From a virus (Duplodnaviria > Heunggongvirae > Uroviricota > Caudoviricetes), in IMG/VR virus record IMGVR_UViG_2859827302_000005, positions 1 to 40,732 of that record: DNA of 40,732 bases. One strand, 5' to 3'. Under the pieces are notes generated by a model, which worked only from the letters and a program-made list of their open reading frames with translations, did no database searches and had not been told where the DNA came from. A program made the translations under genes and the position numbers. The first letter of the stretch is position 1; each line of letters starts with the position of its first letter. Positions 1,501 to 40,732 of the stretch are shown here, one piece after another.

Positions 1501-1918
1501 CTACCTGCATCAGGTTGTTTTTTGTTTCTTCCGCCTCCCGGATCCGGAACATTTTTTCTGCTTCCGTACCCTTCACCCAGGCTGTGCCGTTCCACTTCTG
1601 AAACTCCCCTTCCGGCGATAACCAGGTAACATTTTCCGGTAACGGACCGAGTTCAGAAATAAATAACTCGTCCCCTGACGCTACGTCATAAACCGTTTTA
1701 CCCCGATGGTCTTCAACGAGATGCCACGATGCCTCATCACTGTTGAAAACAGCCACAAAGCCAGCAGGAATATCTGGTGGTGCAATATCGGTACTGTTTG
1801 CTGGCAGACCTGTATGAGGCGGAATATATGCGTCACCTTCACCAATAAATTCATTAGTTCCGGCCAGCAGATTATAAATTTTTATGGTCCGTGCTTGTTC
1901 ACTCATTCTGAATGCCAT
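1334..1918 (-). CDS. tfa: tail fiber assembly protein Tfa (lambda orf-194 type)
   Basis: 194 aa, near-identical to lambda Tfa as I recall it (MAFRMSEQ...[12 protein letters not shown]). Its ATG overlaps the stf stop codon. Confidence 0.9.
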
Positions 1919-9581: not shown

Positions 9582-10230
9582 TTACCGCCCAATTACCACA
9601 ACCTGACCACCATCCCCTTCATCTGCCGTGCTGATCTCCTGAGATGCCACACGTGACCCCACGCGCATTTCACCGTACAGAACAGGCAGGACATTGCCCT
9701 GGGCAACCATGTTATCCAGTGAGGAGAAATAGGTGTTCTGTTTGCTGTTTGCCGTTATCCGTTGTCTGTGTACGTGGAGTTTTGGGTTTAGGGGCCAGCA
9801 TCTGTGCGACACCACCAAGCGTCATCGCTGCCCCCATAGAAAAGAGAATGTTACTGAAAGCGATACTGATTCCTGGCATCCAGATTGCCGTAGCAATCAG
9901 CGCCGCACCCAGCACTGCCTGAAAAACACCACCACTTTTGGCACCCGCCAGACGCGGTACGATGTGGATCACGGCACCATTTGCCAGCGGCTCATTAAGA
10001 CGGGCAGATAATTCGTTTTCGCCTGCATCACGCCCGGCAATGCGCACCTGATACCAGCCCTCATTCAGTTTCTGGCGAAACGCCGGGAGCTGTGTGGCCA
10101 GCGCCCGGATGGCTTCGGCCCCCGTTTTCACACGAAGGTCGATGCGGCGACCAAATCGTTGTAAATCCCCGTAAAGGCAGATGCGTGCCATGCCTGGTGA
10201 CGCCAGAGGGAGTGTGTGCGTCGCTGCCAT
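9582..10230 (-). pseudogene. I: tail assembly protein I, frameshifted by a 7-bp tandem duplication
   Basis: N-terminal 172 aa match lambda I and then stop prematurely. The lambda-like C-terminus (NTYFSSLDNMVAQGNVLPVLYGEMRVGSRV...VVVIGR) continues in another frame to 9582. Plus-strand TGTTTGC occurs twice in tandem at 9739..9752. Confidence 0.8.
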
Positions 10231-15338: not shown

Positions 15339-15944
15339 TTACCCTGCAGCGCCCGCTTCAGTAACGGTGACTTCAGCCACTGCGGCGAACTGACCATTTC
15401 CGCTCACCACAGGGATCTGCACCTTACCTGTCGCCACGCCGTTTACCGTAATTGTCATATCTTTCACACTAATGGTGGCTTTCGACGGATCGGCGGAAAC
15501 CGCTCTGAACGTCTTGTCGGTTGCACTTTCCGGCTCAAAAGAAACCGTCAGGGTGGTTGTTTTCCCTTTTGCCACCGTACCGGATGTCGGCGTCATCTTA
15601 ATCGCACTGACCGGCGTAATTTTGCTGCGTTCTTCCGCTACAGAAGGTTTACCCACGTTAGTGACTTTCACCGTGCGGGTGATCACTTCTTTCGCCGTCA
15701 CGGCCTTACCGATACTGCTGACCCAGCCACGAAACACATCCACCGTGCCATTCGGAAAACGGATTTTATAGGCCCGGACATCGCCGCTTTCAAACCAGCC
15801 TATAAGCCCTTTCTGGCCTTCCTCTCCCGGTTTCCAGGCCAGCGTAAAACTGGTATCACCTGCAGATTTCTGCCCCTGCCCGGTCGCGGTCCAGTCCGCG
15901 TCTTCATCATCCAGGTAGTTATCATCGTAGGATTCTGCCGTCAT
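15339..15944 (-). CDS. V: major tail tube protein V, N-terminally shortened relative to lambda V
   Basis: 201 aa, aligning with lambda V from about residue 51 (TAESYDD...). The ATG lies 7 nt after the U stop, with an in-frame TGA 11 codons upstream. Confidence 0.8.
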
Positions 15945-15951
15945 CTCGCCC

Positions 15952-18701: not shown

Positions 18702-18758
18702 AAATCAGTTCCTTTCATTAAGAAATCAGTCAGGCCAACGCGGTGGCCTGATAACGTG

Positions 18759-19106
18759 TTACGGCAGCGCCGCGTGACTCAGGGCGGTGCCGGCAAAGGC
18801 ATTTGCCTTTTTGTGTTCATCCACACTGTCAGGCCAGCGGATTGCCTCCGTCGCAAAGGTCCCCGACTTGTAATACGTCAGCACCGCCTCTGTGCCTTCA
18901 AGCGGCAGTACCAGTATGCCAACCGCACTACCGGCTTTCTGTCCGTCCCAGACCACCAGTTTCCCGGTGGCCCCATCCAGCATCAGGGGTGTCAGTGCCG
19001 GTGTTGCCGAGGAAATCCCGCTGCTGCCTGTGGCGGTGTGAGCCGGATCATTACCGGCAAAAATACGTACTTCCGCACGCTGTTCAGTGATGGTTTTCTT
19101 CACCAT
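18759..19106 (-). CDS. D: head decoration protein D
   Basis: 115 aa, lambda D-like (…DPAHTATGSSGISSATPALTPLMLD…). Confidence 0.9.
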   Translation of the reverse strand: MVKKTITEQRAEVRIFAGNDPAHTATGSSGISSATPALTPLMLDGATGKLVVWDGQKAGSAVGILVLPLEGTEAVLTYYKSGTFATEAIRWPDSVDEHKKANAFAGTALSHAALP

Positions 19107-19176
19107 ATTGTTAAAACCTCGTATTGATGTTCAGCACTGACTTCATGGCATGGCCATGAGCATTTTCACGTCCGCA

Positions 19177-20649
19177 TCACCGTCTTCTGACGCCTGTGAC
19201 ACGCTCCCCCTGGACCGCAGCCGGTGAATGGTTCGCCATGAAATGTTCAAACAGGGCGGTTGTGGATGCAGAGACCGGTTCTGCCTTACCTGATCCCGCA
19301 GCCAGCACAGCCCGGGCGCTCTCCACGGTCATTCCCGGGCAGGCAGCCAGCTGTTCAGCCTGCGCCTCAGCCCCTTTTGCCTCATCCAGTGCCATGATCT
19401 GATCACGGAGTGATGGTCCGGCATTCGCCTGCGGTGAAGCAGCCAGGATCGGGCGGGCTTTTTCCACCGTCATCTCCGGCATCGCCGCCAGCGTTGCTGC
19501 CAGTTGTTCACGACCGTTCGCTTCTTCACACGCCATAATGCGATCGGCTTCACTCTGCGCGGATGCCACCGGCTGCTGCGGTGCCGCCGCGGCCAGAATC
19601 GCCCGGGCCTGTTCAACGCTCATGCCCTGTTGCCCTGCCAGCATCGTGGCAAGCTGTTCACGTCCTTTCGCTTCCTGGCATGTCAGGATCCCCATCACTC
19701 GCTGGTTCTCCTGCACGGCGGCTTCCGTTGCAGTTAATTGCGGCATAGTGCCTCCTCTGACATTACTGTTCAGCGCCGTGGCCATCACACTGATGGCATC
19801 CGACGCATTGATTAATTCATCCGCCAGCCCGGCCTCAATGCCGGACTGACCTTCAAAAACGGCGGCCTCTGTTCCCGTGACCGCATCCACAGACAACCCG
19901 GTATACATCGCCACTTTTTCGGCAAACATCCGGTGCGCCGCATCAATCCGCTGCTGCATATCCTGGCGAACCTCTGCCGGCAACGCTTCAAACTGATTGC
20001 CATCCACCTTGTGCGCCCCGGCATAAATCAGCGTGATATCCACACCGGCCTGCGCCAGATGACCGGCATAGCTGACATGGCTCATCATCACGCCAATGGA
20101 GCCGATACGGGATGTCTGGGTAACCAGCCGTCGGGAGCAGGCCGACGCCAGCAGCATGGCTGCAGAACAGGCCGTGTCATTGCACAGTGCCCAGACCGGC
20201 TTCTGCTGACGGAGGCGGTAAATCATGTCAGCGCAGTCAAACGCGCCGGCGGCCTGCCCGCCCGGACTGTCAATGTCCAGCAGTATGCCCCGCACCTGGC
20301 TATCTGCCATTGCCTGCTGAAGACAGGCGACAATGCCGTCATAGCCAGTCATTCCGGAAAATGGCCGCATCCCCCCCAGCCGGTGCACCAGCGTGCCGGT
20401 CACCGGCAGTACCGCAATACCGTTCACCACCCGGTAAACACGGGCCGGTCGTTTACCTCCGGCCATGTACTCGTCCGTTTCAGCCAGCATTCCGGGAGCA
20501 TCAAGCTGTACCTGCTGTTGTGGTACCGAAAGACTTGCTGCGCCCATCTCGCGCCCGAGCGCGCAAAAGAAAACCCGCGCATAGGCGGGCTCCAGAAGCA
20601 GCGGTTCATTGAATGCTGCGGCAATAATGTGTGAAAGATTACGTCTCAC
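19177..20649 (-). CDS. C: head maturation protease C (S49 family) with nested scaffold Nu3
   Basis: 490 aa. N-terminal ClpP/S49-like protease region; C-terminal scaffold region with three tandem ~45-50 aa repeats. Confidence 0.85.
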   Translation of the reverse strand: MRRNLSHIIAAAFNEPLLLEPAYARVFFCALGREMGAASLSVPQQQVQLDAPGMLAETDEYMAGGKRPARVYRVVNGIAVLPVTGTLVHRLGGMRPFSGMTGYDGIVACLQQAMADSQVRGILLDIDSPGGQAAGAFDCADMIYRLRQQKPVWALCNDTACSAAMLLASACSRRLVTQTSRIGSIGVMMSHVSYAGHLAQAGVDITLIYAGAHKVDGNQFEALPAEVRQDMQQRIDAAHRMFAEKVAMYTGLSVDAVTGTEAAVFEGQSGIEAGLADELINASDAISVMATALNSNVRGGTMPQLTATEAAVQENQRVMGILTCQEAKGREQLATMLAGQQGMSVEQARAILAAAAPQQPVASAQSEADRIMACEEANGREQLAATLAAMPEMTVEKARPILAASPQANAGPSLRDQIMALDEAKGAEAQAEQLAACPGMTVESARAVLAAGSGKAEPVSASTTALFEHFMANHSPAAVQGERVTGVRRR

Positions 20650-27291: not shown

Positions 27292-27507
27292 TTACTCTCC
27301 CCGTGCCGCCTTACGACGGTCCTCTCTGATTTTGAAATACAGGTTAGTCAGATATGTCAGCAGCCCAAACAGCAGACTCCCCAGCACGCCTATTGCCGCC
27401 CACTGAGACGGGGAAACCCTGTCCAGCAACTGCAGGAACCAGTAGCCCGTTCCCACCGCTGACGTGGTGTATGACACACCTGTTGTGATTTTTTCCATCT
27501 GGTACAT
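27292..27507 (-). CDS. S: class II holin (S21/EssQ-like) with dual-start motif
   Basis: 71 aa, [28 protein letters not shown]…, two transmembrane segments. Dual starts at Met1 and Met4. Confidence 0.8.
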
Positions 27508-27618
27508 ACCCCGTCTCCCGTTATCCGGAAGCTGACAACAATAAAAAAAGCCACCAGTTAAGTACTGATGGCTCTGATAACTCATGCAGGCCTCTCAGAC
27601 GACCCACTGGATTTGCCC

Positions 27619-28524
27619 CTATATTTCCAGACATCTGTTATCACTTAACCCATTACAAGCCCGCTGCCGCAGATATTCCCGTGGCGAGCGATAACCCAGC
27701 GCACTATGCGGATGCCATTCGTTATAATGCTCGAACGCCTCTGCAAGGTTCTTTGCTGCCGTTAACCCGTCTGGTTTGGGCATGATACTGATGTAGTCAC
27801 GCTTTATCGTTTGCACGAAGCTCTCTGCTATTCCGTTACTCTCCGGACTCCGCACCGCCGTGTTCTTCGGTTCAAGTCCCAACATCCGGGCGAACTGGCG
27901 TGTTTCATTAGCCCGGTAGCATGAACCATTATCCGTCAGCCACTCCACTGGAGACGACGGAAGATCGTTGCCGAAGCGGCGTTCCACCGCTCCCAGCATG
28001 ACGTCCTGTACTGTTTCACTGTTGAAGCCGCCGGTAGTCACCGCCCAGTGCAGTGCCTCACGATCACAGCAGTCCAGCGCGAACGTGACACGCAGTCTCT
28101 CTCCGTTATCACAGCAGAACTCGAACCCGTCAGAGCACCATCGCTGATTGCTTTCTTTCACGGCCACTCTGCCTGTATGTGCCCGTTTCGATGGTGGTAC
28201 AGCAGGTTTTCGCTCAAGCAACAGCGCATTCTGGCGCATGATCCGGTAAACACGTTTGGCATTGATCGCAGGCATACCATCAAGTTCTGCCTGTCTGCGA
28301 AGCAGCGCCCATACCCGACGATAACCATACGTGGGCAGCTCTCCGATAACATGGTGTATACGGAGAAGCACATCCGTATCATCAGTGTGACGACTGCGGC
28401 GGCCATCCATCCAGTCATCGGTTCGTCTGAGAATGACGTGCAACTGCGCACGCGACACCCGGAGACAACGGCTGACTAAGCTTACTCCCCATCCCCGGGC
28501 AATAAGGGCGCGTGCGCTATCCAC
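27619..28524 (-). CDS. insD: IS2 transposase OrfB (InsD)
   Basis: 301-aa ORF with DDE integrase-like sequence; in IS2 it is expressed as a frameshift fusion with InsC. Confidence 0.9.
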
Positions 28525-28847
28525 TTTTTTGCCCGTCCATATTCAACGGCTTCTTTGAGGAGTTCATTTTCCATCGTTTTCTTGCCGAGCAGGCGCTGGA
28601 GTTCTTTAATCTGCTTCATGGCGGCAGCAAGTTCAGAGGCAGGAACAACCTGTTCTCCGGCGGCCACAGCAGTAAGACTTCCTTCCTGGTATTGCTTACG
28701 CCAGAGAAATAACTGGCTGGCTGCTACACCATGTTGCCGGGCAACGAGGGAGACCGTCATCCCCGGTTCAAAGCTCTGCTGAACAATTGCGATCTTTTCC
28801 TGTGTGGTACGCCGTCTGCGTTTCTCCGGCCCTAAGACATCAATCAT
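28482..28847 (-). CDS. insC: IS2 OrfA (InsC)
   Basis: 121 aa, [41 protein letters not shown]…, helix-turn-helix. Confidence 0.9.
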
Positions 28848-28993
28848 CTGTACTCCAATGACTAGTCTAAAAACTAGTATTAAGACTATCACTTATTTAA
28901 GTGATACTGGTTGTCTGGAGATTCAGGGGGCCAGTCTACCCACTGACACTACCGGTGAGTTTAACGATACCTTCCATTTGACTGGCTCACTTT

Positions 28994-30850
28994 TTATGAT
29001 GATGCCGGTGCATTTATCTCCAGCACCAGACTTTCTATCTCAACGCCATACGCTGCATTTTTGGTAATATCCGTCAGCGTCAGCGCATTCAGCCCCAGTG
29101 TCAGACTGTCTTTTATGACCTGGAATGCCGGGCCAGCCACTCCATTCAGTTTCGGAGTAACCGTGGCACTGCCGGCGGTGAACACCAGCTCCAGCGTCTG
29201 CCAGTCGTTACTGTAATTCCCGAACTCGCCCAACTTTGTGTTTCCGGCTTTCTTGTGATGCATCAGATTCAGTTTGCCGTCTGTGGTCTGGGTGAAGAAC
29301 GACATCAGGAACGGGTTACCAGTCCCGGTCATCGCCACGACGTCAGGTAACGCTACATCGGTATACAGATAAATTCCCAGACCGAACTGGTTGTTGGTCA
29401 GTGCGCCTGACAGTCGAAACTTACAGCTCAGTCTGCCACCCCGTGTCAGCAGGGAGACTGCGTCATCCACCGGATGCATCAGGGACCAGGTTTTATTGCT
29501 CTGCTTGGTAACCTTAAACACACCATCTTCCAGCGCAACACTGCCGCCGGTGATGGTCCAGCCCTGCGCAGCAGCCTCTCCGGCTGTCGGCAGCAGGGAG
29601 ACTGTACGAACGGATGTGTCACCATCAGACGGCCCCGATGGCGTGTCGCCGCCGGGCGAGGGTTTAATCTCCGGTGCGGTACCGCTGATGAAGGCGCTGG
29701 TTCGACCAACTGCGTTCAGAATAGCGGTTGCCAGGCGATCCGAAATAATGCCCCTGCGCGCCCATGAACTGAAATGTGTCGGACGATTTGACGATACCCA
29801 ATTACCATTACTACGGGATTGCGCGCCGTAATAACCTGCATCAGCAATATCCGGGTCTTCTGCCGGTAAGTTGGTGGGCGTGTTGTTGCCGTTACCGTCG
29901 GTCATGAACGGCACAAAGAAAACGTTGTCGCTCTCCCTGTTTTTGTACGCGCCGTAGACGGAGTCATACTGTGTGCCGTATGTGTTTTTCCAGTAATACG
30001 TCGTGTCGCCACAAATCCACGGTACAACTGCAGCACTGCCGCCATGGCACTGCGCGTTAAATCCGGAAAGGTCAGTACGGAACTGCTTCAGCATGGCCGT
30101 GAACAGGTCCGGTTGCTGTGCGTAGGTGGCAGCGCTCATGTCAAATTCGCCCTGCATCCAGCACACCGCCAGCAACACATTTTTCGGGTTCTTCTGTAAT
30201 GCCGCTTTGGTGCGTGCGATCAGGTCCTGATATAACGGTTTACCCACACCCCAGCGTGCCGAATCCTGGCTGGCCCCCGTGTCCGCACTGAATGTCCCCT
30301 CCGCGCCCTGGGTGAATGCCGAACCACCACGACAGCATGGTACCAGCAGGATCCCCGCGTTATTCGGGATATACGGAAGCAGTTTTTTGGCAATATGTAA
30401 GCCCTGGCCGACACAGCCGTACTGCCCTTTGCTCAGGTCTGCCTTCGGATGATTCAGTGCGCTCATATCCTGAACATCATGCAGGCAGTGGTCTGCCGGA
30501 ATGATGTCGTTAAATGCGCATGCTTTACCACCGGGAGTCACTGTGTTGCGACGGGCCAGTTGCTTAATACGTGGGTGGGGCGCATCGTAAGAATCCGGAA
30601 GCGGAAGCCCTTCACCGTAAGCCATGGCATTGGATTGCCCGGCCAGTACGATGACGTAGTACCACTCCGGCTCAGTTGCACCACTGACGACCACATCACC
30701 TTCTGCTGCAATCGCCTGCATCAGGGTATAAGGGGTTATGGCCACCGGACTACCAAACGGCTGCCAGCCCTCTTTCAGTTTATGTGTCAGCTTTTCCGCA
30801 AGATCTGACGGCGACGCCGCCCTGACAACATCATAGTGTTTAAATGCCAT
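28994..30850 (-). CDS. nanS: prophage sialate O-acetylesterase, NanS-p-like (SGNH hydrolase plus C-terminal domain)
   Basis: 618 aa from the ATG at 30850 (alternative ATG at 30865; the ORF-track start is a TTG inside IS1). SGNH motif VIVLAGQSNAMAYGE. Sits between the tRNA/stx slot and the holin, as nanS-p does in Stx phages. Confidence 0.7.
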   Translation of the reverse strand: MAFKHYDVVRAASPSDLAEKLTHKLKEGWQPFGSPVAITPYTLMQAIAAEGDVVVSGATEPEWYYVIVLAGQSNAMAYGEGLPLPDSYDAPHPRIKQLARRNTVTPGGKACAFNDIIPADHCLHDVQDMSALNHPKADLSKGQYGCVGQGLHIAKKLLPYIPNNAGILLVPCCRGGSAFTQGAEGTFSADTGASQDSARWGVGKPLYQDLIARTKAALQKNPKNVLLAVCWMQGEFDMSAATYAQQPDLFTAMLKQFRTDLSGFNAQCHGGSAAVVPWICGDTTYYWKNTYGTQYDSVYGAYKNRESDNVFFVPFMTDGNGNNTPTNLPAEDPDIADAGYYGAQSRSNGNWVSSNRPTHFSSWARRGIISDRLATAILNAVGRTSAFISGTAPEIKPSPGGDTPSGPSDGDTSVRTVSLLPTAGEAAAQGWTITGGSVALEDGVFKVTKQSNKTWSLMHPVDDAVSLLTRGGRLSCKFRLSGALTNNQFGLGIYLYTDVALPDVVAMTGTGNPFLMSFFTQTTDGKLNLMHHKKAGNTKLGEFGNYSNDWQTLELVFTAGSATVTPKLNGVAGPAFQVIKDSLTLGLNALTLTDITKNAAYGVEIESLVLEINAPASS

Positions 30851-30930
30851 GGTTCTTTCCACCATCTGAAAAATGGGTGATGCTGCCAACTTACTGATTT
30901 AGTGTATGATGGTGTTTTTGAGGTGCTCCA

Positions 30931-31206
30931 GTGGCTTCTGTTTCTATCAGCTGTCCCTCCTGTTCAGCTACTGACGGGGTGGTGCGTAACGGCAAAAGCA
31001 CTGCCGGACATCAGCGCTATCTCTGCTCTCACTGCCGTAAAACATGGCAACTGCAGTTCACTTACACCGCTTCTCAACCCGGTACGCACCAGAAAATTAT
31101 TGATATGGCCATGAATGGCGTTGGATGCCGGGCAACTGCACGCATTATGGGCGTTAGCCTCAACACGATTTTACGTCACTTAAAAAACTCAGGCCGCAGT
31201 CGGTAA
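30931..31206 (+). CDS. insA: IS1 InsA
   Basis: 91 aa, [43 protein letters not shown]…. Confidence 0.9.
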
Positions 31207-31250
31207 CCTCGCGCATACAGCCGGGCAGTGACGTCATCGTCTGCGCGGAA

Positions 31251-31628
31251 ATGGACGAACAGTGGGGATACGTCGGGGCTAAATCGCGCCAGCGCTGGCT
31301 GTTTTACGCGTATGACAGGCTCCGGAAGACGGTTGTTGCGCACGTATTCGGTGAACGCACTATGGCGACGCTGGGGCGTCTTATGAGCTTGCTGTCACCC
31401 TTTGACGTGGTGATATGGATGACGGATGGCTGGCCACTGTATGAATCCCGCCTGAAGGGAAAGCTGCACGTAATCAGCAAGCGATATACGCAGCGAATTG
31501 AGCGGCATAACCTGAATCTGAGGCAGCACCTGGCACGGCTGGGACGGAAGTCGCTGTCGTTCTCAAAATCGGTGGAGCTGCATGACAAAGTCATCGGGCA
31601 TTATCTGAACATAAAACACTATCAATAA
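31251..31628 (+). CDS. insB: IS1 InsB frame (C-terminal part of the InsAB' transposase)
   Basis: …[51 protein letters not shown]…; expressed by -1 frameshift from insA. Confidence 0.8.
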
Positions 31629-31886
31629 GTTGGAGTCATTACCTGAAAAATGATTCTTTAAAATACCTGACATGTAATACAGAAAAAAACAAAACCATAC
31701 CTTAAATAAAAACCTCATCATCAAGCAGATATGCATGGATAAACTACAAGACGAGATATAAACCACCATGCATTTAAATAAACAATAAACAACATCAGAA
31801 AAATAATTCTGCTCTATGGTTTACAATCAAAAATATCATTTATACTTTTCAGAACATCACCAGCAAGACATAAACAAGGAAACTAA

Positions 31887-32222
31887 ATGAAGTGGATTGT
31901 GATTGATACAGTTATCCAGCCATCATGCGGAATATCTTTTTCAGTCATATGGAGTAAAATAAAATTAATAATCTGGTATCAATCGGATGCTTTCTTACCT
32001 CCTGAAAGTATATTTACACTGACTCACACAGGCATCATGCTCAATAACAAAGTGCTACCTGTAACCATTTACAACGTAGTGCCATTCAATAAAACATTCT
32101 GGAATTTAATCAAAAACAGCCAGGAATGCCCTACAAATACAGATAACGTATTGAATGAATGCTTTAATAACCGTTGCACTCTGCAAATATGTCCTTATGG
32201 ACTAAAACAACAAAGTCCATAA
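31887..32222 (+). CDS. hypothetical 111-aa protein, AT-rich, Cys-rich C-terminus
   Basis: AAGGA Shine-Dalgarno 7 nt before the ATG, very AT-rich upstream region, opposite strand to the late genes. Five Cys in the last ~35 aa. No family recognised. Confidence 0.45.
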
Positions 32223-32257
32223 GGAGTTTACTCACATCTGACAAAATCAATATAAAC

Positions 32258-32455
32258 AGCCCCTCCGTAGAGGGGCTGGAGAGTGGCGCTATGTGCCATT
32301 GCATGGTGCCGGGTGCCTCCCGGTGAATTCAGTACCAGCACCTGAATCCGCGATTATCCCATATACCTACTCGCTGATTGCCCCTCCGCACAGGGGGATT
32401 CACCATGCGAAATTTTTTAACAAACTTCCCGCTGGCCAGACAATAATCGCCAGCC
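32258..32455. repeat. structured non-coding element, paralog 1 (candidate sRNA or recombination element)
   Basis: Shares ordered conserved blocks with 32721..32920: GC hairpin agcccctccgtagaggggct, gcatggtgccgggtgcctcccggtgaattcag, a hairpin attcag-N9-ctgaat, agggggattcaccatgcga, and ttttttaacaaa…gccagacaat. No conserved ORF. Confidence 0.4.
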
Positions 32456-32720
32456 TGAATTATGAGCAACGTAGCATTTTACGGGAAAACTGTTTTCTGC
32501 AGTAAAAAGGCCCGCCGGAGCGAGCCTGGAAGGATAGCGGTCATGTGATGCCGGTTTCCCGGTAACTCAGCATCGGTATCTGAGTCAACGTTTTCTCTAC
32601 TGGGTCATTTCCGATACGTTCCGCCTTCCGGCAGACTTTCATCACGTCAGAAAATATAGCACCCTGAGTAACAGGACAGTACTCAGAATTCAGGAAACTG
32701 TGACACATCCTGCACAGAAA

Positions 32721-32920
32721 AGCCCCTCCGGAGAGGGGCTGAAGTATAGCCTAATTTCTGTCTGTCGCATGGTGCCAGGTGCCTCCCGGTAAATTCAGCC
32801 TGTCTACTGAATTTGCATGTTCTCTGGATCATACACTTTGCCAGATGCCCCGCCGCTGAGGGGGATTCACCATGCGATGTAATTTTTAACAAATTCTCCG
32901 GCAGCCAGACAATCATCAAG
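32721..32920. repeat. structured non-coding element, paralog 2
   Basis: Same block order as 32258..32455. The internal hairpin keeps its stem but changes its loop (aaattcag-N8-ctgaattt). Confidence 0.4.
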
Positions 32921-33109
32921 CTGTGGAATTGTGAGGTATTTAAAAATTTCAACGGGTAACTGATACCCTGCTAATCGCCTGATGCTTTCTTTTTCAGCAA
33001 CGGGAAAGCAACAACCACCACACCCGCCACCAAAACATCATCAGACAGCACCGACATTATCCGGCTGCTGAAGTCCACCATCACCACCAGAAACAACAGG
33101 AGTGCAACC

Positions 33110-33157
33110 ACAGCTGCTTAGAAGGCAATTGCTCTGTCCGGCTGAGCTAACAACGCA
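33110..33157 (-). pseudogene. tRNA-Arg(UCU) argO-like remnant (5' half only)
   Basis: Minus strand GCGTTGTTAGCTCAGCCGGACAGAGCAATTGCCTTCTAAGCAGC gives acceptor 5' strand, D-arm and anticodon arm (loop CTTCTAA). No T-arm or complementary acceptor 3' strand follows. Confidence 0.3.
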
Positions 33158-33170
33158 GAATACCGATAAA

Positions 33171-33247
33171 TGGACCGCCATCGAGAACTCGAACCCCGCG
33201 CAACCAGCTTCGAAGGCTGGCGCTCTATCCCGATGAGCTAATGGCGG
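33171..33247 (-). tRNA. argN: tRNA-Arg (anticodon UCG), argN-like
   Basis: Manual fold: 7-bp acceptor CCGCCAT/ATGGCGG, D-stem GCTC/GAGC, anticodon stem CCAGC/GCTGG with loop CTTCGAA, T-loop TTCGAGT (T-stem with two G-U pairs), 3' CCA encoded. Confidence 0.7.
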
Positions 33248-33254
33248 TATGTGA

Positions 33255-33330
33255 TGGTGGCCCTTGCTGGATTTGAACCAGCGACCTGGCGATTATGAGT
33301 CGCTCGCTCTCACCACTGAGCTAAAGGGCC
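33255..33330 (-). tRNA. ileZ: tRNA-Ile2 (anticodon CAU, lysidine type), ileZ-like
   Basis: Minus strand GGCCCTTTAGCTCAGTGGTGAGAGCGAGCGACTCATAATCGCCAGGTCGCTGGTTCAAATCCAGCAAGGGCCACCA, close to E. coli ileX as I recall it. Confidence 0.85.
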
Positions 33331-33370
33331 GGGAGCCGCATAATAACGACGCGTAATTAATTCTGCAATA

Positions 33371-34429
33371 TCATCCGTTCTGGCTGACTAAATCCTGTAC
33401 TTCCCGAACCGTCTGCTCAAAACGTCCGGTCTCCAGCTCAACGCCAATCGCACGACGCCCGAGCGCCAGTGCCGCTTTTACCGTTGAACCTGAGTCCATA
33501 AAAAAATCTGCAACCAGGTCACCCGGACGACTGCTTGCGCTGATTATCTGCTGCAGCATTTCTGCCGGTTTTTCGCACGGATGTTTCCCGGGATAGAACT
33601 GCACCGGTTTATGTGTCCACACATCCGTGTACGGCACCTGCGCCGTCACACCAAAATACCGCCGCAGATGCTTATATTCACTCTGCAGCTCCACATACTG
33701 CCGGTTCAGTGACGTATACGTATCCACCAGCTGGTAGTGGGGCTTTTCCAGTTCACCGCGCTGATGTTTCTCTTCTGCCACCCGGGCAAACAGCGACTGT
33801 AATTTCAGATAATCGCTTTCGTTCGGTAGCTGCCACTGACTGGCACTGAACCAGTGCGACACCATGTTTTTCTTTCCTGTGGCATCTGCAATCTGTTTTG
33901 CCGTTATCCCCAGGGCCGCGCGCGCATCACGAAAGTAAGAAATCAGCGGGGCCATCACATGCTGTTTCAGTGCACTGCCCTTCGCCGCATACCCGGCATC
34001 TTTCGGACGATACGGCCCCTGATAATGTTCCGCGAACAGAATGCGCTCTGTGGCGGGGAAATACGCCCGCAGGCTTTCCTTGTTGCATCCGTTCCAGCGT
34101 CCGGACGGCTTCGCCCAGATAATATGGTTCAGCACACTGAAGCGTTCACGCATCATGATTTCGATATCAGATGCCAGGCGATGACCACAGAACAGGTAAA
34201 GACTTCCGGCAGGTTTCAGCACCCGCCAGAACTGCGCCAGACACTGGTCCAGCCACTTCAGGTAATCATCGTCGCCCTTCCACTGGTTATCCCAGCCCTC
34301 AGGCTTCACTTTAAAGTACGGCGGGTCCGTGACTATCAGGTCAACAGAATTTTCGGGTAACGACCGGATAAATTCCAGGCAGTCGGCGTTGATTAACTCA
34401 CAACTGGATATTTTTACAGTATTAGCCAT
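33371..34429 (-). CDS. orphan DNA N6-adenine (or N4-cytosine) methyltransferase, beta class
   Basis: 352 aa with an N-terminal DPPY motif (LIVTDPPYF) and a C-terminal SAM motif (DLVADFFMDSGST). No adjacent restriction endonuclease gene. Confidence 0.85.
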   Translation of the reverse strand: MANTVKISSCELINADCLEFIRSLPENSVDLIVTDPPYFKVKPEGWDNQWKGDDDYLKWLDQCLAQFWRVLKPAGSLYLFCGHRLASDIEIMMRERFSVLNHIIWAKPSGRWNGCNKESLRAYFPATERILFAEHYQGPYRPKDAGYAAKGSALKQHVMAPLISYFRDARAALGITAKQIADATGKKNMVSHWFSASQWQLPNESDYLKLQSLFARVAEEKHQRGELEKPHYQLVDTYTSLNRQYVELQSEYKHLRRYFGVTAQVPYTDVWTHKPVQFYPGKHPCEKPAEMLQQIISASSRPGDLVADFFMDSGSTVKAALALGRRAIGVELETGRFEQTVREVQDLVSQNG

Positions 34430-34565
34430 AGATCAATAAGCACTTCTCTGATAGGCTCATACCGCTTTTGCGCAAAGCAGATGGGCCTGAGGTTTGCTTG
34501 TGAATCCAACGCATGAGCAGATGGCTGGTGGGTGCCCCTAACACCCACCAGCCGCCCATTTACCA

Positions 34566-34594
34566 CAAATAAAAAAGCCTTCACTGCGGAAGGC
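34566..34594 (-). terminator. intrinsic terminator immediately after the small ORF
   Basis: Stem gccttc/gaaggc with loop actgcg, followed on the minus strand by a long T-run (plus-strand aaataaaaaa). Confidence 0.5.
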
Positions 34595-34778
34595 GTCTGT
34601 AACAACCGAACTGATAGTCTGCCAGACCCGCCATAACCAGCTGGGTCAGTATTAACTGGCAGCGTTCGCGTGAAAGGTAAGTATTCTGCGCAATCTCCCC
34701 GACTGTCGCCGGGTCGTTAACGCTTAATTCATTAAACACCACTCTGGCGGTTTCTGTCATATCCTGCTGTTTTAGCAT
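34581..34778 (-). CDS. hypothetical 65-aa protein
   Basis: MLKQQDMTETARVVFNELSVNDPATVGEIAQNTYLSRERCQLILTQLVMAGLADYQFGCYRRLPQ; GGAAAAGGG Shine-Dalgarno-like sequence upstream. Lies between two terminators. Confidence 0.4.
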   Translation of the reverse strand: MLKQQDMTETARVVFNELSVNDPATVGEIAQNTYLSRERCQLILTQLVMAGLADYQFGCYRRLPQ

Positions 34779-34898
34779 GTCTTTTTCCCTTTTCCGGTTA
34801 ACGTGACACACCAATAACTCTTGTCGAAAAAGCCAGCAAGCTGAAAGACAGGTATTCACCGCCACCAGCGCGTTTACTGTACTGACGCGATTTCAGTC

Positions 34899-34923
34899 AT
34901 AAAAAACCCGCCAGGCGGCGGGG
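34899..34923 (-). terminator. tR'-like intrinsic terminator downstream of Q
   Basis: Stem cccgcc/ggcggg with a 4-nt loop, followed on the minus strand by TTTTTT. Lies about 80 nt after the Q stop, where pR' and a short leader are expected. Confidence 0.55.
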
Positions 34924-35004
34924 TGTAAAAAATCTTCTAACGTCAGGCATAAAACGCCCATCGTTAGAGCAAATTTACCACAGATTCGGGAAAAATCAAC
35001 AACA

Positions 35005-35826
35005 CTATCGCGTTACCCTCTTTAACTGCCGCTCCGCCCATGCCTCTTCAATGTCAAACCGAACCACCAACGTATCGTAAAAGCGTTTCACTGATTTTTT
35101 CCACGTATCAAGCGTGATAGCACTCGTCACTTTGCATATGGCATTAAATGCCTCCGTTGATGGTAGTCTTTCACAGCCACGACCACCACAACGCTGGCAG
35201 TCTCTGATAACAGGCATACCACGTTTTACCGACTCTTCACGATGAATGGCGACACCACGCCCACGGCAATCCTTACAGGCGGTGGAAACCTCACCCTTTC
35301 CGCCACACTCCGGACAGGCAACTTTTACCACCTCCCTGACTTTTTTCCATTCTTCCCAGTAAGACGGATACACACCTTTCGTACACTTTGCCCATACCGG
35401 CGGCTTACCATCCGGATACTGGACCTTGTTTGTAAAAACTACGCTTTCAATAAATTTTTCCCCATAGCAACAAGGGCACTGCTTTTTACTCGCTGCGCTG
35501 CGGGCATAATCCTCAAAAGCGTACGAAGCCATAATGCGCATCACTACCGGTTTTATTTCTGCCGGAAGTTTTCTCAACGCCGCCACACGATCGCACCGAC
35601 TGAGTGCATAATCTGCCAGTAATTCTGTTGCCCGCGCCCTGTCATTCATACTGATGCCCATTTTCCCCAGGAACGCAGAAAACCCCATCTCAGCCCGATT
35701 CTGTGTCATGCCCTGCGCGGCCATCACATCAGTGATACTCAGCGCATCTTTTGACGTTGAGGCCGATACATCGGTCAGGCCAGGGGATTTTGGGGAGTAG
35801 TATTTCGGTAAATCTTCCAGTTTCAT
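35005..35826 (-). CDS. Q: late antiterminator Q (Q82/YdfT-like, zinc-finger)
   Basis: 273 aa with CxxC…CxxC motifs (CPECGGKGEV…CKDCRGRG, CQRCGGRGCERLPSTEAF) resembling the phage-82-type Q family as I recall it. ATGA overlap with the rusA stop. Confidence 0.65.
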   Translation of the reverse strand: MKLEDLPKYYSPKSPGLTDVSASTSKDALSITDVMAAQGMTQNRAEMGFSAFLGKMGISMNDRARATELLADYALSRCDRVAALRKLPAEIKPVVMRIMASYAFEDYARSAASKKQCPCCYGEKFIESVVFTNKVQYPDGKPPVWAKCTKGVYPSYWEEWKKVREVVKVACPECGGKGEVSTACKDCRGRGVAIHREESVKRGMPVIRDCQRCGGRGCERLPSTEAFNAICKVTSAITLDTWKKSVKRFYDTLVVRFDIEEAWAERQLKRVTR

Positions 35827-36197
35827 TTTTTGACCTGCTCTTCATGCATTATGGGGTAAATCTTCACCCCCATACGTCCACCAGATACTGGCTGACCACG
35901 AACGATATTGATTTCATCAAACTGCTCATCGTCCATTAACACTCCCGCATGCGTCAGCGCATCCAGCGGTGCTTTCAGGATATTGTCCAGGTCGCGACGA
36001 CGCTTATCCGGTGGCTCTGCAATCACCTTTATCGCCAGCCTTCCGGACAGGCTTAATTTCAGCCGCTGCTGGCGAACAATAAGCGCCACAGCCCGGCGAT
36101 AACGCTTTCCCTCCTCCGAGATAAAATATGTGCTGCCACGGCGTCGCCAGTAAGTGTTCACCGTCGGCGGGTAAGGTAAAACCAAATCTATGAGCAT
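35823..36197 (-). CDS. rusA: Holliday junction resolvase RusA
   Basis: 124 aa with the RusA signature …PDKRRRDLDNILKAPLDALTHAGVLMDDEQ…. Confidence 0.85.
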   Translation of the reverse strand: MLIDLVLPYPPTVNTYWRRRGSTYFISEEGKRYRRAVALIVRQQRLKLSLSGRLAIKVIAEPPDKRRRDLDNILKAPLDALTHAGVLMDDEQFDEINIVRGQPVSGGRMGVKIYPIMHEEQVKK

Positions 36198-36209
36198 CAG
36201 TCACCTCTT

Positions 36210-37256
36210 TTACCCAAGCACGCCAGTTGCAAAGGCGTGATCAAGAAAACGAAAAATTAAATCAACCTGAGAACCATGCTTTTCTTCGAACGCCAGAGGA
36301 TCCGCATGAAGCTCGTTGTGATGCTCCCGACACAGCGGTAGCGTGAAAATATCGTGAGATTTTGTCCCCATTCCGCCCTGACCATGACCAATCAGGTGAT
36401 GGGGATCGTCGGCTGGCTTACCACAACACGCACACGGCTGTGTCTTCACCCAGCGTGTGTATTTCTCGTTAACCCAGCGGCGACGTTTAGGTCGTTTCAT
36501 GAAAGATTCCGGAGACTCAGGATCAACGGCAATGCTGACCACCGTCTCTTCCTGTGGCGGGTTTTGCTGGTGGGCGTGAGGCAGCGGCGCAAGATTTTTT
36601 GTGCGCTGCTTCAGTATGCTGGTGGCGGTCTGCTCTCCCGGTACGATGTCGCTTTCACGGTACATTGAGCGGATTTTTTCCGCACGCAACCCCAGCGAAC
36701 GACGTAATACCGCTTCCGGTAGCGCGTCCGCCACCTGATTGCGGACCGCCCACCAGGATAATTCAGCCAGCGATAATTCCCGTTCCTGCGAGCCATTCAT
36801 TGCATGGCGTATGACGTCAATCATCCATGCAGACAGGTTTTGGTGAGCAAGTTGCCCGAGTGATTCGGAGGTCTGGTCGCGCAGCTGGTTGTCGCAGTGC
36901 CAGCACAACACCATTGCGCCGGTACCATAACGGTGAATGACGGTTTCACTGTGGTGATAATCGCCGTGTGGCCACTGGCAGGATTTAACATGGCGCAGTA
37001 ACCAGTCAGACAATGCGCCAGCGCCACCAGCAGCACGAATCACTCGTTCGTCGCTGAAAAATGGCAGTAATGATTTATCCTCCGCCAGCGGCTGGCGAAC
37101 GGCAGGAACGACCCCGGACGGCAGATTACGCATGCTTTTCGGTTCCGGCTCCACCAGTACCCGGGTATTGTGGAATACCGGCATGGATTCACGGCCCGGC
37201 TTAACGATCACCAGCCCGAGTTCCGGTACCAGAACAGGTCGAAGTAATACCCGCAC
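36210..37256 (-). CDS. ydfU: DUF968/YdfU-like protein with C-terminal HNH-like motif
   Basis: 348 aa. C-terminus CACCGKPADDPHHLIGHGQGGMGTKSHDIFTLPLCREHHNELH has Cys and His-Asn-His motifs. ORF-track start is a GTG; an ATG lies 24 codons in. Confidence 0.7.
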   Translation of the reverse strand: MRVLLRPVLVPELGLVIVKPGRESMPVFHNTRVLVEPEPKSMRNLPSGVVPAVRQPLAEDKSLLPFFSDERVIRAAGGAGALSDWLLRHVKSCQWPHGDYHHSETVIHRYGTGAMVLCWHCDNQLRDQTSESLGQLAHQNLSAWMIDVIRHAMNGSQERELSLAELSWWAVRNQVADALPEAVLRRSLGLRAEKIRSMYRESDIVPGEQTATSILKQRTKNLAPLPHAHQQNPPQEETVVSIAVDPESPESFMKRPKRRRWVNEKYTRWVKTQPCACCGKPADDPHHLIGHGQGGMGTKSHDIFTLPLCREHHNELHADPLAFEEKHGSQVDLIFRFLDHAFATGVLG

Positions 37257-37257
37257 G

Positions 37258-37536
37258 TTATCTCCAGATGCGTTGCTGGTATGTGCGGGACAGACGCGGT
37301 GGGCGTTCGGAGTAAGGAAGCCTGACGGAGATTATCCAGTGACGGTAGTCGAGGCTAAGGGCTTTTTTAACCTCGCATCCGCGCCTGCGGTAACACTGAA
37401 TGAGCCATTCGGCCTGTTCTTCAGTGCATGAGGGATGCTGGTACCAGTCTGACTTAAATGCGTGAGAATACCGCTCGTGCGTGTGGGCAAGAACGGTCGA
37501 ATTATCATGTTTGTAATATTTTGCGTTGCGTGCCAT
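37258..37536 (-). CDS. hypothetical 92-aa phage protein
   Basis: ATG with GGAGA Shine-Dalgarno; its stop abuts the DUF968 start. No family recognised. Confidence 0.5.
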   Translation of the reverse strand: MARNAKYYKHDNSTVLAHTHERYSHAFKSDWYQHPSCTEEQAEWLIQCYRRRGCEVKKALSLDYRHWIISVRLPYSERPPRLSRTYQQRIWR

Positions 37537-37602
37537 CGGTTTTCTCCGGTGGCACGGTGTTACTCAGCGGGAGTTCAGCCCCGCGCAAGATTGTAGATGA
37601 GT

Positions 37603-37854
37603 TTATTCTTCTGAAAAAGCAGAAAAGCCAGCTTTTATTCCGATCTCTTTCAATACCTGTAATGAAGTGACAAACTCACCGTCGCGCAAGATAAATCCGT
37701 CCGTCACTCGGGCATCCACAAAATTAATTAACGCAGCCCCATTTTTTTGCAAACACACAATGCGGTAATGACTAACAATATTTCCATTTTCAACGCACAC
37801 AGCATAGAGGCCATCTTCACAAAAAATTTTACGCAGTTCTTCGATGTTCATCAT
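37603..37854 (-). CDS. rem: Rem-like small prophage protein (83 aa)
   Basis: Same size as the Qin-prophage Rem and adjacent to hok, as in Qin. GGAAGG Shine-Dalgarno. Assignment by size and position only. Confidence 0.45.
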   Translation of the reverse strand: MMNIEELRKIFCEDGLYAVCVENGNIVSHYRIVCLQKNGAALINFVDARVTDGFILRDGEFVTSLQVLKEIGIKAGFSAFSEE

Positions 37855-37965
37855 CAGAATCCTTCCGGATAATTAGCTCTCCCCTTTAAGGGACCATCCC
37901 TCTTATCCCTGCGCGCTACTTAAGTATTTTTGATTCTATTCCGGCACCGTCCAGAACTTCAAATG

Positions 37966-38000
37966 CGTTGAAAATAAAAACAAAAACCCGCCGAAGCGGG
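37966..38000 (-). terminator. intrinsic terminator at the 3' end of the hok mRNA
   Basis: Stem cccgc/gcggg with loop ttcg, followed on the minus strand by TTTTTGTTTTTATTTT. Confidence 0.65.
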
Positions 38001-38070
38001 TTAAGTGCGGGTGCGTTGAGAATGCCTGCCACATCAGAGGTGGCGAGGGATTTCTCCCTCGCCGGGTCTC

Positions 38071-38226
38071 TTACTCCTCAGGTTCGTAAGCTGTGAAGAC
38101 AGCGACCTCCGTCTGGCCGGTTCGGATTCGTACCTCGCAGAGGTCTTTCCTCGTTACCAGTGCCGTCACAATGACGGTTAAACAGATGACGATCAGGGCG
38201 ATTAGCATCGCCTTTTGCTGCTTCAT
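38071..38226 (-). CDS. hok: Hok-family type I toxin
   Basis: MKQQKAMLIALIVICLTVIVTALVTRKDLCEVRIRTGQTEVAVFTAYEPEE, 51 aa. Confidence 0.9.
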   Translation of the reverse strand: MKQQKAMLIALIVICLTVIVTALVTRKDLCEVRIRTGQTEVAVFTAYEPEE

Positions 38227-38283
38227 AGCCTGCTTCTCCTTGCCTTTCGGCACGTAAGAGGCTAACCTACGTGTGTAGAGCAT
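38071..38283 (-). CDS. mok: Mok (overlapping reading frame that drives hok translation)
   Basis: 70-aa ORF in the same frame, extending 19 codons upstream of hok. Confidence 0.6.
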   Translation of the reverse strand: MLYTRRLASYVPKGKEKQAMKQQKAMLIALIVICLTVIVTALVTRKDLCEVRIRTGQTEVAVFTAYEPEE

Positions 38284-38300
38284 AGATATGGCCTCAGATT
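38230..38300 (+). ncRNA. sok: predicted Sok antisense RNA (approximate position)
   Basis: Placed by analogy with hok/sok loci, antisense to the mok start region. Boundaries not determined from sequence. Confidence 0.3.
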
Positions 38301-38517
38301 AATGTTAAGCGTCTTGCCGGACGCGTAATGTTAACTGGGGCTTTTCTCTATCTGCCTTTTGGTGTTCATGCCTGAGACAGATAGCCTCAAGCACCCGCTG
38401 CAATTCTACTTAACTCTCCTTTTCCCGCAAACCGTTTTTATCCCCAGCGGCAAATCGAATACACCACCAGCGCCACCGCCATCGCAATTCCTACCGTTGT
38501 TAATGCTTCAGGCCAGG

Positions 38518-38754
38518 TCATCGTAAAATATCCTCCACGCTTATCAGTCCGTTCCGCTCCAGATAACTCATCGCCTTATCCGGTAATTTGCAGTCTGGCT
38601 TCGCTTTCCTCAGTTGCCAGGTTAACTGCTTTACCAGCATGGTTAACTCATCGACCAGACGCTGATATCCCACTGGTTTGTATTCATGCAATTTACCGGC
38701 TGGCTCTGCTGCCAGCGATACCAGTGCGATTTCCAGAACAGCAATATCCATCTT
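38518..38754 (-). pseudogene. C-terminal part of a 114-aa gene split by IS2 copy 2
   Basis: Reading frame is continuous with 40091..40198 once IS2 and one TSD copy are removed (…IIRTYK|MDIAVLEIALVSLAAEPAGKLHEY…). Confidence 0.6.
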
Positions 38755-38765
38755 TGGATTTGCCC

Positions 38766-39671
38766 CTATATTTCCAGACATCTGTTATCACTTAACCCAT
38801 TACAAGCCCGCTGCCGCAGATATTCCCGTGGCGAGCGATAACCCAGCGCACTATGCGGATGCCATTCGTTATAATGCTCGAACGCCTCTGCAAGGTTCTT
38901 TGCTGCCGTTAACCCGTCTGGTTTGGGCATGATACTGATGTAGTCACGCTTTATCGTTTTCACGAAGCTCTCTGCTATTCCGTTACTCTCCGGACTCCGC
39001 ACCGCCGTGTTCTTCGGTTCAAGTCCCAACATCCGGGCGAACTGGCGTGTTTCATTAGCCCGGTAGCATGAACCATTATCCGTCAGCCACTCCACTGGAG
39101 ACGACGGAAGATCGTTGCCGAAGCGGCGTTCCACCGCTCCCAGCATGACGTCCTGTACTGTTTCACTGTTGAAGCCGCCGGTAGTCACCGCCCAGTGCAG
39201 TGCCTCACGATCACAGCAGTCCAGCGCGAACGTGACACGCAGTCTCTCTCCGTTATCACAGCAGAACTCGAACCCGTCAGAGCACCATCGCTGATTGCTT
39301 TCTTTCACGGCCACTCTGCCTGTATGTGCCCGTTTCGATGGCGGTACAGCAGGCTTTCGCTCAAGCAACAGCGCATTCTGGCGCATGATCCGGTAAACAC
39401 GTTTGGCATTGATCGCAGGCATACCATCAAGTTCTGCCTGTCTGCGAAGCAGCGCCCATACCCGACGATAACCATACGTGGGCAGCTCTCCGATAACATG
39501 GTGTATACGGAGAAGCACATCCGTATCATCAGTGTGACGACTGCGGCGGCCATCCATCCAGTCATCGGTTCGTCTGAGAATGACGTGCAACTGCGCACGC
39601 GACACCCGGAGACAACGGCTGACTAAGCTTACTCCCCATCCCCGGGCAATAAGGGCGCGTGCGCTATCCAC
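38766..39671 (-). CDS. insD: IS2 transposase OrfB (InsD)
   Basis: 301 aa; one amino-acid difference from copy 1 (K vs Q). Confidence 0.9.
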
Positions 39672-39994
39672 TTTTTTGCCCGTCCATATTCAACGGCTTC
39701 TTTGAGGAGTTCATTTTCCATCGTTTTCTTGCCGAGCAGGCGCTGGAGTTCTTTAATCTGCTTCATGGCGGCAGCAAGTTCAGAGGCAGGAACAACCTGT
39801 TCTCCGGCGGCCACAGCAGTAAGACTTCCTTCCTGGTATTGCTTACGCCAGAGAAATAACTGGCTGGCTGCTACACCATGTTGCCGGGCAACGAGGGAGA
39901 CCGTCATCCCCGGTTCAAAGCTCTGCTGAACAATTGCGATCTTTTCCTGTGTGGTACGCCGTCTGCGTTTCTCCGGCCCTAAGACATCAATCAT
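39629..39994 (-). CDS. insC: IS2 OrfA (InsC)
   Basis: 121 aa, identical to copy 1. Confidence 0.9.
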
Positions 39995-40090
39995 CTGTAC
40001 TCCAATGACTAGTCTAAAAACTAGTATTAAGACTATCACTTATTTAAGTGATACTGGTTGTCTGGAGATTCAGGGGGCCAGTCTAATCTT

Positions 40091-40198
40091 ATATGTGCGG
40101 ATGATGTCATGGTCGATTGTGCCCGGTATGCACAGTCTCTGTGCTTCAATAGTCTCCTCTGCGTGAGCTATTAACTGCTCTCTGGTAAAAGTCGTCAT
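40091..40198 (-). pseudogene. N-terminal part of the IS2-split gene
   Basis: [36 protein letters not shown], then the TSD; start ATG overlaps the stop of the upstream small ORF (ATGA). Confidence 0.5.
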
Positions 40199-40362
40199 GC
40201 CGTAGCCCCTTCTTGATATTTTTCAAACCAGAACACAACCGGCTCTGCTTCCAGCGATGCCAGCGCAATCCGTGCCAGTTCCATTTGTTCACCACGGGTA
40301 AGCCCGTTTTCAAGCGGGTTTTTAATGAACAATTCAATACGTTCTTTGGTAATAGTGGTCAT
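40195..40362 (-). CDS. hypothetical 55-aa protein, paralog-like to the IS2-split gene
   Basis: [55 protein letters not shown]. Below the ORF-track size cutoff. Shares the MTT…L(A/V)SL(E/A)AEP pattern with the downstream gene. Confidence 0.35.
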
Positions 40363-40364
40363 GT

Positions 40365-40732
40365 GTGAGGTAGCCTGAGTTTAACGGACACTCCTTCCTG
40401 AAATAGAATGGCATCAGAAGGAGCTAATAATGAGCAGAAAAAACCAACGTTACTCTAAAGAGTTCAAAGCCGAAGCTGTCAGAACGGTTCTTGAAAATCA
40501 ACTTTCGATCAGTGAAGGCGCTTCCCGATTATCCCTTCCTGAAGGCACTTTAGGACAATGGGTTACCGCCGCCAGAAAAGGGCTCGGTACTCCTGGTTCC
40601 CGCACGGTGGCTGAACTGGAATCTGAAATTCTGCAACTGCGTAAGGCGTTAAATGAAGCTCGCCTTGAGCGAGATATATTAAAAAAAGCAACAGCGTATT
40701 TTGCACAGGAGTCGCTGAAAAATACGCGTTAA
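40365..40732 (+). mobile_element. partial IS3-family element (IS600-like?), left end only
   Basis: Begins TGAGGTAGCCTGAGTTTAACGG… about 65 bp before an IS3-family orfA. The element runs off the window. Confidence 0.6.
40430..40732 (+). CDS. IS3-family transposase OrfA
   Basis: 100 aa, MSRKNQRYSKEFKAEAVRTVLENQLSISEGASRLSLPEGTLGQWV…, helix-turn-helix and leucine zipper typical of IS3-family OrfA. Confidence 0.8.
   Translation: MSRKNQRYSKEFKAEAVRTVLENQLSISEGASRLSLPEGTLGQWVTAARKGLGTPGSRTVAELESEILQLRKALNEARLERDILKKATAYFAQESLKNTR

Follow-up and report, generated by a model that had tools for sequence, protein, structure and literature searches.

Intact IS1 and IS2 insertions in the late operon of a cryptic lambdoid prophage are probably bystanders of its decay

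The virus record IMGVR_UViG_2859827302_000005 (Caudoviricetes) is a stretch of 40,732 nucleotides, here called the window, that carries a lambda-like prophage integrated at ompW in minus-strand orientation. Two insertion sequences (IS), one IS2 and one IS1, sit in it between the late promoter region and the genes for lysis and morphogenesis. The best overall explanation, to which we give a probability of roughly 0.7, is that these are ordinary IS in the late operon of a prophage that is dead from other lesions, and that they are near-neutral bystanders. They would belong to the IS expansion that is typical of Shigella. The prophage is cryptic mainly through loss of its control and replication region and through broken tail genes, not through the IS. 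The case is one of ordinary IS-driven prophage decay, with nothing outside known biology.

The IS2 next to the lysis genes (copy 1; 27608..28938, minus strand) is an intact element of 1331 bp with imperfect terminal inverted repeats, the left (IRL) at 28938 and the right (IRR) at 27608. It is flanked by the 5-bp target-site duplication (TSD) CCCAC (left 27603-27607, right 28939-28943). Its orfA (28482-28892, minus strand) covers the NCBIfam IS2 TnpA profile from end to end (positions 1-121 of 121), and its orfB (27619-28524, minus strand) does the same for the TnpB profile (positions 1-301 of 301, 725.7 bits). The two overlap in the -1 frame and, as read from the sequence, the overlap holds the A6G frameshift motif AAAAAAG. 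Size (~1.33 kb), repeats, duplication, slippery site and a DDE (rve) transposase are all those of IS2. Its transposase runs in the direction of the phage late genes.

The IS1 (30876..31643, plus strand) is likewise intact, with 768 bp, terminal inverted repeats of ~23 bp and the 9-bp duplication TGAAAAATG (left 30867-30875, right 31644-31652). Its insA (30931-31206, plus strand) has the N- and C-terminal InsA domains of Pfam and is followed in the -1 frame by insB' (31251-31628, plus strand; Pfam DDE_Tnp_IS1), the A6C motif TTAAAAAAC being readable at the end of insA. The element is 98.7% identical to IS1B of E. coli MLI121. It lies antisense to the late transcript and points to the iraM-like gene, 243 bp upstream of whose ATG it sits. 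Exactly 25 bp separate its other end from the ATG of the nanS-p-like gene (30850), and exactly 100 bp separate IS2 copy 1 from the ATG of the holin gene S (27507). Both elements are therefore intergenic and neither breaks an open reading frame (ORF). Both duplications and both distances agree to the base with those given in an earlier note on this DNA.

Comparison with IS-free relatives, which the earlier note had suggested as a check, finds both sites empty in E. coli. In E. coli 266917_2 (L001; 99.8% DNA identity over nanS-p) each duplicated sequence is present once, and a single TGAAAAATG at an empty IS1 site is found also in E. coli GZ04-0086 (L007) and in contigs L013-L015, L017 and L018. 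Since the sites are empty and the duplicated sequences single in relatives, IS2 copy 1 and IS1 arrived by clean simple transposition. They are ordinary intact IS in two intergenic gaps of the late operon.

The decisive damage to the prophage lies elsewhere, largely beyond the right end of the window. Exact-protein look-ups of the truncated V and of an ORF fused to the end of a second IS2 place the window in CP026828.1, a 4.64-Mb chromosome. Positions 5339-25944 of the window are 100% identical to L010, and positions 28518-40732 are 100% identical to L016 (CP026828.1). The identity of the sister genome CP026832, which is Shigella dysenteriae 14 ATCC 49346 (PMC10132075), together with the content of IS1, IS2 and IS600, indicates that the host chromosome CP026828.1 is probably also that of a Shigella. 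In ATCC 49346 the prophage retains its early region and has IS2 copy 1 but no IS1. The window ends within an IS600, of which it holds the first 367 bp (40366..40732, plus strand); the element is 1264 bp long and runs past the end, where it marks a deletion of the early region. It has no 3-bp TSD (TAC on one side vs CAC on the other). L016 reaches 8 kb further than the window (L016 1-8416), and there the IS600 joins a 281-bp stub of the nin region to a C-terminal int fragment of 160 amino acids (aa), beside a full-length ompW. Past ompW, L016 soon has a third IS2.

Contigs L013, L014, L015 and L017, from sister genomes, have more than 8 kb at the corresponding place, with genes for a cI-like repressor, cro, ydaT, a DnaT-like O, lambda P, nin genes, dicB and exo. 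All of this, with the left operon and its recombination genes, has been deleted from CP026828.1 in association with the IS600, and int is cut to 160 aa. What remains of the prophage lacks an immunity region, replication genes, a functional integrase and the normal promoter of the late antiterminator gene Q. The IS600 deletion and a deletion in tail gene V are seen only in the genome of the window and its closest relatives.

Genes were compared with those of the closest complete relative, E. coli GZ04-0086, whose prophage also lies at ompW (98-99% identity). The major tail gene V (15339..15944, minus strand) is truncated to 201 aa by a 147-bp deletion; what is left of the ORF begins at the position that matches Met50 of the full-length protein, and alignment with lambda gpV shows the loss of the N-terminal residues 1-49. 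The two pieces in which the gene aligns to the relative share 10 bp (window 15942-15951), an overlap suggesting that the deletion arose at a short repeat. An exact-protein look-up finds the truncated allele in only three public contigs. The tail assembly gene I is frameshifted by a 7-bp tandem duplication, CTGTTTG/CTGTTTG (9738..9751, minus strand). In C/Nu3 (S49 protease/scaffold) a 1-nucleotide indel near window 19205, common to L010-L012, changes about the last 20 codons and gives 490 aa vs 501. YdfR and Rz are different alleles from those of GZ04-0086, both in open ORFs. The other proteins compared, including Q, S, R, NanS-p and IraM, are full-length or nearly so.

A complete, inducible lambdoid prophage is thus not what this locus of CP026828.1 amounts to, with its early region absent, its int reduced to 160 aa, V short of 49 aa and I out of frame. 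The earlier note had also described the prophage as cryptic, on account of the frameshifted I, the short V and polarity of the two IS. Both tail lesions are borne out and the verdict of crypticity stands, early-region loss being the stronger reason for it; polarity as a reason is not supported. Without pR and early antitermination, Q would not be made, and RNA polymerase starting at the late promoter pR' would stop at the terminator tR', so that the late genes would be silent with or without the IS. With Q deprived of its normal promoter by the deletion, the question of polarity is moot in CP026828.1.

It is nevertheless instructive to ask what the two IS would do to a late transcript if Q were present. 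The predicted Q (273 aa; 35005..35826, minus strand) belongs to the Q-lambda family (PDB 7UBM, E = 5e-38; Pfam PF03589), both its halves aligning to 7UBM with an insertion of ~68 aa between them. Directly downstream of it is a pR'-like promoter (34960..34999, minus strand) with a -35 element TTGATT (34999-34994) and a -10 element TAAATT (34977-34972). The alignment to lambda pR' places a -10-like sigma-pause element, AACGAT, at 34965-34960 on the same strand; GGTAAATTTG..AACGATGGG is conserved with unchanged spacing, and the 6 nucleotides between TAAATT and AACGAT are as in lambda. A tR'-like intrinsic terminator follows (34900..34922, minus strand), with a hairpin at 34922-34907 (-12.6 kcal/mol) and then U6. 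A Q-lambda homologue, a pR' with its pause element and a subsequent tR' make up a lambda-type Q late antitermination module, as judged by sequence.

After tR' come a small ORF, a DNA methyltransferase gene, two tRNA genes, two copies of STnc100 and, on the opposite strand, iraM; then IS1, nanS-p, IS2, a hairpin, S, ydfR, R, Rz, terminase and the head and tail genes. In this respect the earlier note was right: both IS are downstream of Q and of the tR'-like terminator on the late path, and gene order puts the pair between the late promoter region and the lysis and morphogenesis genes. The path from pR' to S itself, with the IS left out, contains on the late strand six stable hairpins, each with a U-run behind it and with folding energies from -8.9 to -20.2 kcal/mol (terminator scan and folding). 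Three of the terminator hairpins are in the STnc100 region (32740-32721, 32527-32508 and 32278-32257, minus strand), and a further one, with its U-run, lies between the IS2 site and S (27547..27575, minus strand; -17.0 kcal/mol, z = -5.5). To get past so many terminators before S, expression of the late genes must rely on an RNA polymerase that Q has made terminator-resistant. The Q homology and the six terminators on the path together point to Q-dependent readthrough of downstream terminators.

The earlier note expected the IS to have probable polar effects on S, R and Rz as well as on all head and tail genes. In its strongest form this explanation has IS1 and IS2 stop the late transcript, so that silencing of the lysis and morphogenesis genes by polarity is a main cause of crypticity. 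Both elements do lie between pR' and the lysis genes, and the antisense strand of IS1 is untranslated and C-rich in places. The polarity of classical IS1 and IS2 insertions is established knowledge (references in PMC12095673). Against this, late transcription is antiterminated by Q and already passes six terminators, and the loss of the early region with the V and I lesions explains the crypticity without any polarity. Within IS1 and IS2 copy 1 the terminator scan detected nothing terminator-like on the late strand; any polarity would therefore be Rho-dependent. One review (PMC12360218) cites Q-lambda as a proven polarity suppressor and states that Q82 complexes resist Rho in vitro.

The classical polar insertions of IS1 and IS2 in the gal and lac operons, and of IS2 in lambda r32, resemble the present ones in that the same elements stand between a promoter and downstream genes. 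Lambda N relieves the polarity of such insertions. In gal and lac, however, transcription is by unmodified RNA polymerase, whereas the transcript in the window would come from a Q-modified polymerase, for which the same review documents suppression of polarity (PMC12360218). Were Q to come from another source, such as a second lambdoid prophage in the same cell, a complex of the Q-lambda type would most likely read through both IS, because it must already ignore the six hairpins between pR' and S.

Among the closest known systems are the Stx2 (Shiga toxin 2) prophage Sp5 of E. coli O157:H7 Sakai and the PST1-1 Stx2a phages. Like the window, they have an IS3-family element where the Q-dependent late path runs from the moron region (stx2, nanS-p) to S (PMC4587872). 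In Sp5, an antisense IS629 lies between stx2B/nanS-p and S according to the Sakai chromosome record, which was used because the IS629 is absent from the VT2-Sakai phage record NC_000902. Sp5 is the dominant phage induced by mitomycin, produces abundant particles and transfers to K-12 (PMC2669165). Similarly, 13 PST1-1 Stx2a phages with IS629 were recovered after induction as DNase-protected phage DNA, at 117-573x depth (PMC4587872). Phages with an IS at the equivalent position thus still lyse cells and package their DNA. The likeness is not complete: Sp5 is a complete and inducible phage, the window a prophage without its early region, and its IS629 runs antisense and cuts into nanS-p at the 3' end, whereas the IS2 here is in sense orientation and intergenic and is joined by an IS1. 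Given the six hairpins, the Q-lambda homologue and the Sp5 and PST1-1 precedents, the claim of likely polarity is not supported. Strong polarity of IS1 and IS2 under Q would, by analogy, be unlikely, and we take an equally sceptical view of polarity as a main cause of crypticity.

Several points weigh against regarding the IS as mere bystanders. IS1 and IS2 are, after all, the classical strongly polar insertions. The antisense strand of IS1 has C-rich, G-poor windows of 78 nucleotides at ~31330-31485 that resemble Rho-loading sites, a crude C/G count of little weight. The Sp5 precedent concerns another IS (IS629) and another Q allele. Read-out from a second copy of IS2 or internal promoters may allow low-level expression of Q. 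Lastly, independent IS insertions in other strains gather around S, a possible sign that they were selected and are not neutral.

The IS might also matter without Q, by rewiring regulation, with promoters at their ends driving nanS-p (IS1 left end), S (IS2 IRR) or iraM (read-out from IS1 insAB'). The ends of IS1 and of IS3-family elements are known sources of hybrid or outward-reading promoters (PMC12095673), and in the window insAB' points at iraM and the IS2 transposase at S. We think this quite improbable. A scan for consensus promoters predicted no hybrid promoter on the late strand at either junction, a weak negative, the scan being of low sensitivity and having missed pR' too. Moreover, the -17 kcal/mol terminator separates IS2 from S, and the 25 bp between IS1 and the nanS-p ATG leave almost no leader.

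The sister genomes reveal the order in which the elements arrived. The second IS2 (copy 2; 38755..40085, minus strand) has the TSD ATCTT and abuts the ATG of a 77-aa ORF of the nin region. Gene callers extend this ORF by 10 codons into the end of the element (window 38755-38781), giving an 87-aa product, and this fusion ORF served as a lineage marker: an exact-protein look-up found it, and with it the IS2 copy 2 junction, in 13 contigs. IS2 copy 1 at CCCAC is present in L013, L015, L016 and L017, while its site is empty in L014 and L018; IS1 is confined to the genome of the window. This distribution of junctions shows that IS2 copy 2 came first, IS2 copy 1 next and IS1 last. L014 (PSST01000003.1), from a sister Shigella genome and with its empty CCCAC site, has an independent IS2 inside S, inserted after nucleotide 41 with the TSD TACAC (18736-20066).

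Two IS2 copies in the same orientation, differing at 3 of 1331 positions and bracketing 9.8 kb, might be taken for the ends of a composite transposon that carried Q, iraM and nanS-p along in one piece. This we regard as extremely improbable and reject, as each copy has its own 5-bp duplication (CCCAC/CCCAC and ATCTT/ATCTT) and the outer flanks (CCCAC, ATCTT) do not match. Furthermore, the DNA between the copies is collinear with that of IS-free relatives, and L018 holds IS2 copy 2 without copy 1.

Of 5426 complete E. coli genomes, 593 contain the module of S, nanS-p and iraM, and not one of the 5426 has both IS at these sites. The exact IS2-S junction was not found in a scan of genome contigs, nor the exact IS1-nanS-p junction in one of viral contigs. 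Other E. coli strains with the module have an IS2 between nanS-p and iraM, an IS1 after S, or an IS1A or ISApl1 in iraM. In E. coli S1-ZIM-01-A (NZ_CP145671.1), an ISEcp1-blaCTX-M-15 unit is annotated under a match to the late-region module.

Such recurrent hits raise the question of whether disarming of the prophage has been selected, IS near the lysis cassette being favoured for the lower risk from holin and endolysin while iraM and the accessory genes keep their own promoters. Independent hits do cluster near S: the IS2 inside S in L014, an IS1 between S and ydfR in E. coli MLI121 and the IS629 at the 3' end of nanS-p in Sakai Sp5. In addition, iraM is 100% conserved. The sample behind this cluster, however, is small and unsystematic, and IS2 copy 1 breaks nothing, a native terminator already standing between it and S. 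IS have also struck iraM itself, in AR_0058 and MRSN346638, a fact that speaks against cargo being protected. In an IS-rich Shigella genome, a total of four IS in 40.7 kb needs no special explanation. We therefore consider selected disarming unlikely. An extended form, in which recurrent IS in and around the holin gene amount to IS-mediated domestication that spares iraM-type genes, and IS2 copy 1 would cut lysis-gene expression even under Q, is distinctly unlikely as well. Near-neutrality of the two IS remains the preferred reading.

The genes around the insertions are themselves in good order. S (27292..27507, minus strand) is an intact class II holin gene of 71 aa with a dual start, MYQM (MYQMEK...), its product 100% identical to the holin of GZ04-0086. 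Between IS1 and IS2 copy 1, nanS-p (28994..30850, minus strand) encodes a full-length esterase of 618 aa with the Pfam domains SASA, DUF1737 and DUF6645 and a full-length tblastn match. Divergent from it is the iraM-like anti-adapter gene (31887..32222, plus strand; 111 aa; NCBIfam NF007393, 162 bits vs a cutoff of 121), whose protein is 100% identical to that of GZ04-0086. The earlier note saw a prophage kept for its cargo; iraM and nanS-p are indeed intact, but this holds for most other genes of the window too. The window also carries rem and hokD, by their PGAP names in relatives.

The two STnc100 small RNA copies are in tandem (32248..32905, minus strand; Rfam, 140.5 and 131.7 bits), between the tRNAs and iraM, and each ends in a strong terminator hairpin. 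L014 apparently has a single copy, as iraM is 466 bp closer to the DUF3927 gene there. The tRNA at 33255-33330 (minus strand) is called Met (CAT) by ARAGORN, and PGAP annotates its homologue in relatives as tRNA-Ile. It is probably ileZ-like and lysidine-modified, as in Stx phages. At the prophage end, a remnant of the tail-fibre-assembly region is duplicated (236-461 and 1285-1510, copies 86-95% identical) and includes an Rfam IS009 match of 221 bits (window 1377-1575, minus strand). Inside the 991-aa tail fibre gene, three tandem repeats of 132 nucleotides are 62-75% identical (window 3137-3532).

The prophage as a whole has counterparts in Shigella and in E. coli K-12. Defective lambdoid prophages of Shigella, among them the Stx remnant of S. 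dysenteriae type 1, are bounded and interrupted by IS1, IS2 and IS600 and have lost regulatory and integration functions while keeping accessory genes. The window resembles that remnant as an IS1/IS2/IS600-interrupted lambdoid relic of this kind, and differs from it in having iraM and nanS-p rather than stx; its lysis cassette is still whole and its morphogenesis module nearly so. The Stx prophage of S. dysenteriae 1 is described as defective in PMC7819885. In E. coli K-12, the window has parallels in DLP12, Rac and Qin: in each case early functions are lost and Q, lysis and accessory genes retained, although the window differs from the K-12 prophages in its near-complete head and tail module and its integration site (ompW). 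Following the loss of early functions, DLP12, Rac and Qin keep accessory genes such as hokD, rem and those of the dicB type.

Two lessons of wider use emerge. First, the status of a prophage should be judged over its whole extent, the decisive lesion in this case lying just outside the window. Second, since late transcription is antiterminated, polarity should not be assumed by default for every IS that a phage late transcript contains. The sister genomes CP026832.1, CP176669.1 and LPSX01000243.1 differ only in the IS present, and so form a natural series for measuring how Q-modified polymerase reads through IS2.

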